64,000 nucleotides of DNA from Escherichia coli O127:H6 str. E2348/69 (GTDB taxonomy: Bacteria > Pseudomonadota > Gammaproteobacteria > Enterobacterales > Enterobacteriaceae), in the NCBI RefSeq assembly GCF_000026545.1, contig NC_011601.1; one strand, written 5' to 3'. Shown piece after piece: positions 1,172 to 1,264 of the stretch; position 1 is the stretch's first letter; each line of letters starts with the position of its first letter. The translations under genes were made by a program, and so were the position numbers. Under the pieces are notes generated by a model. It saw only the letters and a program-made list of their open reading frames with translations. It was not told the origin of the DNA and did no database searches.

Positions 1172-1194
1172 AAAAAGGCGCTCCGTGGAGCGCC
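1171..1194. terminator. stem-loop (GGCGCTCC..GGAGCGCC) with flanking A/T run between convergent psiE and malG; likely bidirectional terminator
   Basis: Inverted repeat read directly in sequence at 1177-1194, preceded by A6. Confidence 0.5.
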
Positions 1195-1264
1195 GAATAA
1201 CAGTCACAAGTTGGGATAACGTAAGTTGAGGGTGCAGCGGCATAACATTGGCAGAACAACATCT

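Follow-up and report, generated by a model that had tools for sequence, protein, structure and literature searches.

The window analyzed in this work is a whole stretch of 64,000 nucleotides from Escherichia coli O127:H6 str. E2348/69 (contig NC_011601.1 of the assembly GCF_000026545.1). Its first 2.4 kb contain, according to the open reading frame (ORF) listing, the end of yjbH, yjbT, psiE, malG, and then malF and malE (Table 1). The psiE gene, which differs from its K-12 counterpart by five single-nucleotide polymorphisms, and malG are convergent and lie exactly 93 bp apart. The initial annotation of this DNA had placed the end of psiE at 1171 and malG at 1265 with this gap between them, in full agreement with the ORF listing. 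It had also proposed that xylE, which it placed between psiE and malG in K-12, is absent here. That gene order is correct, since in E. coli MG1655 (NC_000913.3) psiE (b4030) is followed by xylE (b4031, minus strand), MalH (b4807) and malG (b4032). The absence is likewise confirmed. A tblastn search of the 64-kb window with the K-12 XylE protein (491 aa) gave no match at an E-value of ≤1e-3, either at psiE-malG or elsewhere in the window, and a 1-kb query across psiE-malG was 100% identical to three independent assemblies of the enteropathogenic (EPEC) strain E2348/69, all of which annotate psiE and malG as neighbors. That xylE is present in some E. coli and absent from others has been published before; the present analysis contributes the boundaries of the insertion, the junctions in outgroups, and the same-site cassettes of other genera.

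Table 1. Coordinates of features in the window and in loci compared with it (L, comparison locus)
Feature	Sequence	Coordinates	Strand	Remarks
yjbH (end)	window
yjbT	window	268-546	-
yjbT-psiE intergenic indel	window	616-675		K-12 about 55 bases longer
psiE CDS	window	761-1171	+	136 aa; phosphate-starvation-inducible protein; ORF listing and E2348/69 annotation
psiE stop codon (TAA)	window	1169-1171	+
A7 run	window	1170-1176	.	reads T7/U7 on the minus strand; serves as U-tract of the malG/MalH terminator and supplies the final two bases of the psiE stop codon; exact site of the K-12 cassette ("empty site")
MalH sRNA gene	window	1170-1272	-	malG 3'UTR-derived; contains 8 nt of the malG end, plus the terminator
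psiE-malG gap	window	1172-1264		93 bp
Rho-independent malEFG/MalH terminator hairpin	window	1177-1194	-	GGCGCTCC-ACGG-GGAGCGCC, then T7
malG CDS	window	1265-2155	-	296 aa; maltose ABC transporter permease; ORF listing and annotation
malF, malE	window			after malG
MalH (b4807)	K-12, L001	4032-4134		maps to MalH of the window
psiE-malG spacer	Citrobacter braakii ATCC 51113, L020	4912-5293		382 bp; decayed xylE
psiE-malG insert	Enterobacteriaceae bacterium RIT691, L044	4897-6586		unrelated 1.77-kb insert
xylE-malG spacer	Klebsiella oxytoca, L068	6429-7139		711 bp
psiE to MalH+malG	E. coli GABEEC10 (NZ_CP118407.1), L088	1501-2895		divergent MalH+malG
xylE	E. coli O26 RM8426, L090	3501-4976		divergent allele

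The statement that the gap holds only a terminator hairpin has to be revised, since the 93 bp form the body of an annotated small RNA gene, MalH. MalH was described as an sRNA of ~104 nt that arises by processing of the malEFG transcript at its 3' end (Iosub et al. 2020, PMC8081044), and in K-12 it was shown to bind Hfq and to regulate ompC, MicA and lamB (PMC8081044). The gene overlaps the 3' end of malG on the same strand, taking in the stop codon and ~95 nt downstream. The window does not differ from K-12 at any position over 1170-1417, i.e. in all of MalH including its seed region, so that the copy in the window is identical base for base to b4807, and MalH is probably also expressed in E2348/69, to judge from this identity. 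A scan of positions 600-2400 against Rfam at a permissive threshold found no family, and Rfam has no model for MalH; therefore the identity of MalH rests on the K-12 annotation and on PMC8081044. In the region 600-1500, the hairpin from 1194 to 1177 with its T7 tract, on the minus strand, is the only terminator-like site, and RNA folding gives the same 3' hairpin. The U-tract of MalH reaches position 1170 and thus overlaps the psiE stop codon by 2 nt.

The seemingly empty spacer is therefore an sRNA gene whose downstream neighbor varies by lineage: beyond the MalH terminator, K-12 continues into the xylE promoter region and E2348/69 into the convergent psiE stop codon. In lineages without xylE, psiE, which is under Pho control, and MalH, which is under maltose control, converge with overlapping 3' ends on one common hairpin, and their termination could be coupled. 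Both the MalH gene and its lineage-dependent neighbor are relevant to the engineering or deletion of this region and to work on MalH or psiE termination in B2 strains.

Compared with the window, K-12 has 1,797 bp of extra DNA composed of a terminator hairpin just after psiE, the xylE coding sequence of 1,476 bp, and 276 bp with the xylE promoter/operator. The place of this cassette is exactly the point at which, in the window, the psiE stop codon meets the MalH terminator. With a slash at its boundaries, K-12 reads ...GAGTAAAAA/gtcagc...(xylE)...gacgaaag/AAAAAAAGGCGCTCC and the window reads ...GAGTAAAAAAAGGCGCTCC; written in full, K-12 has GAG-TAA-AAA/GTCAGCACGCCGAAATGGCGCGGCGTGCTGGAC...xylE...276 bp upstream region...GACGAAAG/AAAAAAAGGCGCTCCGTGGAGCGCC, and the window has GAG-TAA-AAAAA-GGCGCTCCGTGGAGCGCC. 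In K-12 the runs of A read T-A5-g on the left side of the cassette and g-A7-GG on its right side; the window has T-A7-GG. Since A5 on the left and A7 on the right bracket the cassette, the breakpoint can be placed only to within the A-run. The junction had been called clean, and in the comparison with K-12 it is so to the base: it reads TAA-A5-GGCGCTCC and shows no deletion scar in the window, neither extra bases nor a remnant of the xylE terminator, coding sequence or promoter.

In the K-12 cassette, we found no integrase or transposase gene, inverted repeats, tRNA target, or unambiguous target-site duplication; the flanking A-runs do not make a convincing target duplication because they are the U-tracts of two terminators. 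As a sign of Campbell-type integration, a repeat of psiE sequence was sought where the K-12 cassette ends on the right; the local alignment score was below the mean for shuffled sequences, and this mode of integration was rejected for E. coli. Import by homologous recombination was considered as well, and the raised divergence between the K-12 and window flanks that was sought as its sign was not found; to the right of the junction, K-12 and the window agree at all of the first 248 bp. The flanks show ordinary divergence only and hold no signal for either direction of the event.

The absence of xylE had been regarded as strain-specific. This view is not supported by the genome survey: 1,786 of the 5,426 complete E. 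coli genomes (33%) have the identical junction, and it was also observed in other Escherichia and in most sampled species of the Enterobacteriaceae. The xylE gene is present in 3,638 of the 5,426 complete genomes (3,642 places in 3,638 records), nearly always as a single chromosomal copy. Together, the genomes with the contiguous junction and those with xylE account for 5,424 of the 5,426, which by inference from these counts makes the two states effectively alternatives and essentially excludes a relocated xylE in the junction genomes. The xylE-less genomes include E2348/69, LF82, Nissle and PMV-1, which we take to belong to phylogroup B2, those with a haplotype that strain "ST69" (presumably D) shares, and IAI39 (presumably F). 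The gene is found in K-12, O26, O111 and O157:H7, for which we assume phylogroups A, B1, B1 and E, respectively. The absence of xylE is thus a property of whole lineages rather than of one strain.

Among the xylE-positive genomes, 14 of 3,638 have less than 80% of the gene. Two examples are E. coli 675SK2, with an IS1 insertion inside xylE, and E. coli TOE17, with only the last 17% of xylE; these are independent inactivations in xylE-positive lineages.

A scan with PsiE, using one genome per species, was applied to compare the locus across the family, and the best 80 of 189 Enterobacteriaceae loci were analyzed; this set left out E. coli, E. fergusonii, E. marmotae, E. ruysiae, clade I and Salmonella. 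Among these best 80 of 189 loci, psiE and malG without xylE between them were found in 66, with a spacer of ≤221 bp in 59 of those 66; xylE was found at the same site in nine (eight from the Citrobacter freundii complex and one from Klebsiella oxytoca); and malG was absent from the fetched stretch in the remaining five. The junction of stop codon, A-run and GGCGCTCC seen in the window is shared by E. albertii, E. whittamii, Escherichia sp. E1V33 and Escherichia sp. MOD1-EC7003, with flanks that are 93-98% identical. The same architecture of stop codon, A-run and terminator hairpin was also observed in distant genera such as Cedecea, Trabulsiella and Mangrovibacter.

Some Salmonella enterica genomes carry a cassette at the same site, in the order malEFG-xylE-psiE-yjbH, and their XylE is 92% identical to that of K-12 at the amino acid level. 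The protein search was clustered at 90% identity, so the XylE relatives at the level of Escherichia were not separated in it; its cluster listing included Salmonella copies and no E. fergusonii copy. A recent donor of xylE was sought by comparing the nucleotide identities of xylE and malG to E. coli across genera, and none was found: the values for xylE and malG, respectively, are 83.8% vs 83.4% in Citrobacter werkmanii (C. freundii complex), 81.9% vs 82.3% in K. oxytoca, and 81.4% vs 83.8% in Salmonella. Judged by these divergences, the xylE lineage of E. coli is roughly as old as the genus, and a long stay of the cassette in Escherichia with repeated clean losses would fit this as well. The occurrence of a same-site cassette with core-like divergence in four genera is a mildly interesting evolutionary footnote.

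Several individual genomes show other states of this junction. In Citrobacter braakii ATCC 51113, the psiE-malG spacer contains a decayed xylE; what is left are the terminator, ~85 bp of the 3' end of the gene, two pieces from its interior (57 and 33 bp) and the distal part of the promoter region. This is a true secondary loss of xylE with scars. In K. oxytoca, a sequence that matches the psiE 3' end at 15 of 16 nt (CTGAAACGCGAATAA) stands just before the Klebsiella-type malG terminator, and a psiE 3'-end copy at the right end of the cassette was found only in this species; its close relatives K. michiganensis and K. grimontii are without xylE. These observations suggest a separate integration history of the K. 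oxytoca cassette. Finally, in Enterobacteriaceae bacterium RIT691 the genes in the insert at the junction are those of a LysR-type regulator and a HAD-family hydrolase; therefore the psiE-malG junction takes other cargo too.

Based on the comparison of these loci, we propose, with a probability of about two thirds, that E2348/69 keeps the ancestral psiE-malG junction, that the xylE-bearing A/B1/E lineages carry an old insertion, and that nothing was deleted from E2348/69. In E2348/69 the site is intact and unoccupied, with psiE and malG separated only by the malG 3'UTR that encodes MalH; in the xylE-bearing lineages a self-contained 1,797-bp cassette would have entered where the psiE stop codon and the MalH terminator meet. 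In every published E. coli rooting known to us, A/B1/C/E form a clade nested among B2/F/D; consequently, a single gain would account for the data, as against no fewer than five or six independent losses. The direction implied by the initial annotation, in which the gene was lost from the strain, is probably to be reversed, as the xylE-less order is widespread and most parsimoniously ancestral. The psiE-xylE-malG order of K-12 is most likely a derived arrangement, held by a minority within the family, and the K-12-centered assumption about the order of these genes can be corrected accordingly.

Two related alternatives to a single gain were weighed against this proposal. The first, which we regard as possible but doubtful, is that the cassette was not gained once in E. 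coli and is an ancient cross-genus presence/absence polymorphism, repeatedly lost without scars or exchanged by recombination by way of the terminator U-tracts on its two sides and its conserved neighbors. This reading is based on the common insertion point in Escherichia, Salmonella, the Citrobacter freundii complex and K. oxytoca, and on a divergence of xylE that equals that of the flanking core genes. The second, a scar-free secondary loss, which we rate as unlikely, holds that the ancestor of B2 and of the other xylE-less Escherichia had the cassette and lost it precisely, either through slipped or microhomology-mediated deletion between the A-runs on its two sides or through replacement, by homologous recombination, with the xylE-less allele of another lineage. 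The sequence around the cassette would permit such a loss: the A5 and A7 direct repeats in K-12, with equivalent A-runs in Citrobacter, are the U-tracts of two tandem minus-strand terminators, and either slippage or allelic replacement via the conserved flanks would regenerate the exact junction. Core-gene-like divergence of xylE between genera is also what is expected of an old, vertically inherited cassette; each of the four genera has carriers and non-carriers among its species or strains; and the recombination breakpoint at or near the junction in E. coli GABEEC10, described below, fits with exchange at this place. In addition, the alleles of xylE within E. coli differ by up to 3.2%, compared with ≤1.3% in the flanks, which hints at an older or more complex history. 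On the other hand, at least five or six independent base-perfect losses would be needed within the genus Escherichia (E. albertii, E. whittamii, two unnamed species, D, and F/B2), as against one gain. The known losses are all untidy, as in the remnant of C. braakii and the IS1-disrupted and truncated copies of E. coli, whereas the window retains nothing of the cassette. Furthermore, the same stop-codon/terminator junction extends beyond the four genera to Cedecea, Mangrovibacter and Kosakonia.

It is very improbable that xylE was moved elsewhere in the genome, or is present as a diverged copy, given the lack of any XylE match in the 64-kb window, the single copy in nearly all xylE-positive genomes, and the complementary counts of 3,638 and 1,786 genomes. 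A collapse of the locus by an assembly or sequencing artefact is practically excluded by the agreement of the three E2348/69 assemblies and by the 1,786 complete genomes with the same junction.

Other locations of xylE, which may point to a source of the cassette, occur in a few genomes and differ from the psiE-malG site. In Shimwellia blattae and in a genome labeled Salmonella Choleraesuis, xylE lies between xylA and xylR, where K-12 has xylFGH, and no xylFGH genes were called between xylA and xylR in these two genomes. The XylE proteins from these xylose operons are orthologous transporters with 81-82% amino acid identity to K-12 XylE. The genome labeled Salmonella Choleraesuis is 4.26 Mb in size, and its label looks doubtful. 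In Entomohabitans teleogrylli, an 88%-identical xylE is found on the other side of psiE, between pgi and psiE.

With respect to function, E2348/69 is without the low-affinity xylose/H+ symporter. The xylBA-xylFGHR genes were found at ≥80% coverage in 5,397 of the 5,426 genomes, including the xylE-less B2 strains PMV-1 and ABU 83972, and E2348/69 very likely retains xylAB, xylFGH and xylR; with these genes it should still use xylose, though probably less efficiently. A comparable case was described for enteroaggregative E. coli 042, in which xylE is absent and xylFGH is kept, and in which xylose metabolism is below that of MG1655, a difference linked to the absence of xylE (Chaudhuri et al. 2010, PMC2808357). 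Like E2348/69, strain 042 is a pathotype strain outside A/B1 without xylE; it is a different strain from another phylogroup, and PMC2808357 is silent on the junction, on MalH and on the direction of the event. In a phylogenomic study of E. coli branches, xylE was listed among the carbohydrate transport functions that are enriched in the B1/A sublineage and differentiate the branches (Gonzalez-Alba et al. 2019, PMC6896753). This enrichment agrees with a gain on the A/B1 side, while in the present set xylE is also found in O157:H7 (E). The physiological weight of the finding is modest: it explains a known metabolic difference, in that E. coli without xylE depend on XylFGH to take up xylose.

Three further observations concern sequence variation at this locus within E. 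coli. The xylE allele of E. coli O26 RM8426 differs by 2.7-3.2% from the K-12, O157:H7 and BEC1 alleles, and its malG, malF and xylE upstream region differ by ≤1.3%, which indicates a putative deep or imported allele within E. coli. In E. coli GABEEC10, psiE is 100% identical to that of the window and the MalH+malG region is 4.6% diverged from it; this region is 4.9-5.6% diverged from the other compared E. coli and only ~94-95% identical to the sampled cryptic-clade species. The pattern implies that recombination took place, probably with a breakpoint in or close to the psiE-malG junction, and that the divergent part was imported from an Escherichia lineage outside the sampled ones. Lastly, the intergenic region between yjbT and psiE is longer in K-12 by a GC-rich, palindromic segment with a REP-like look, and the surrounding ~60 bp align poorly. 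The longer spacing also occurs in O26 and O157:H7, together with an extra annotated "hypothetical" ORF of 144 bp; the indel is independent of xylE status, since BEC1 carries xylE and has the short spacing.
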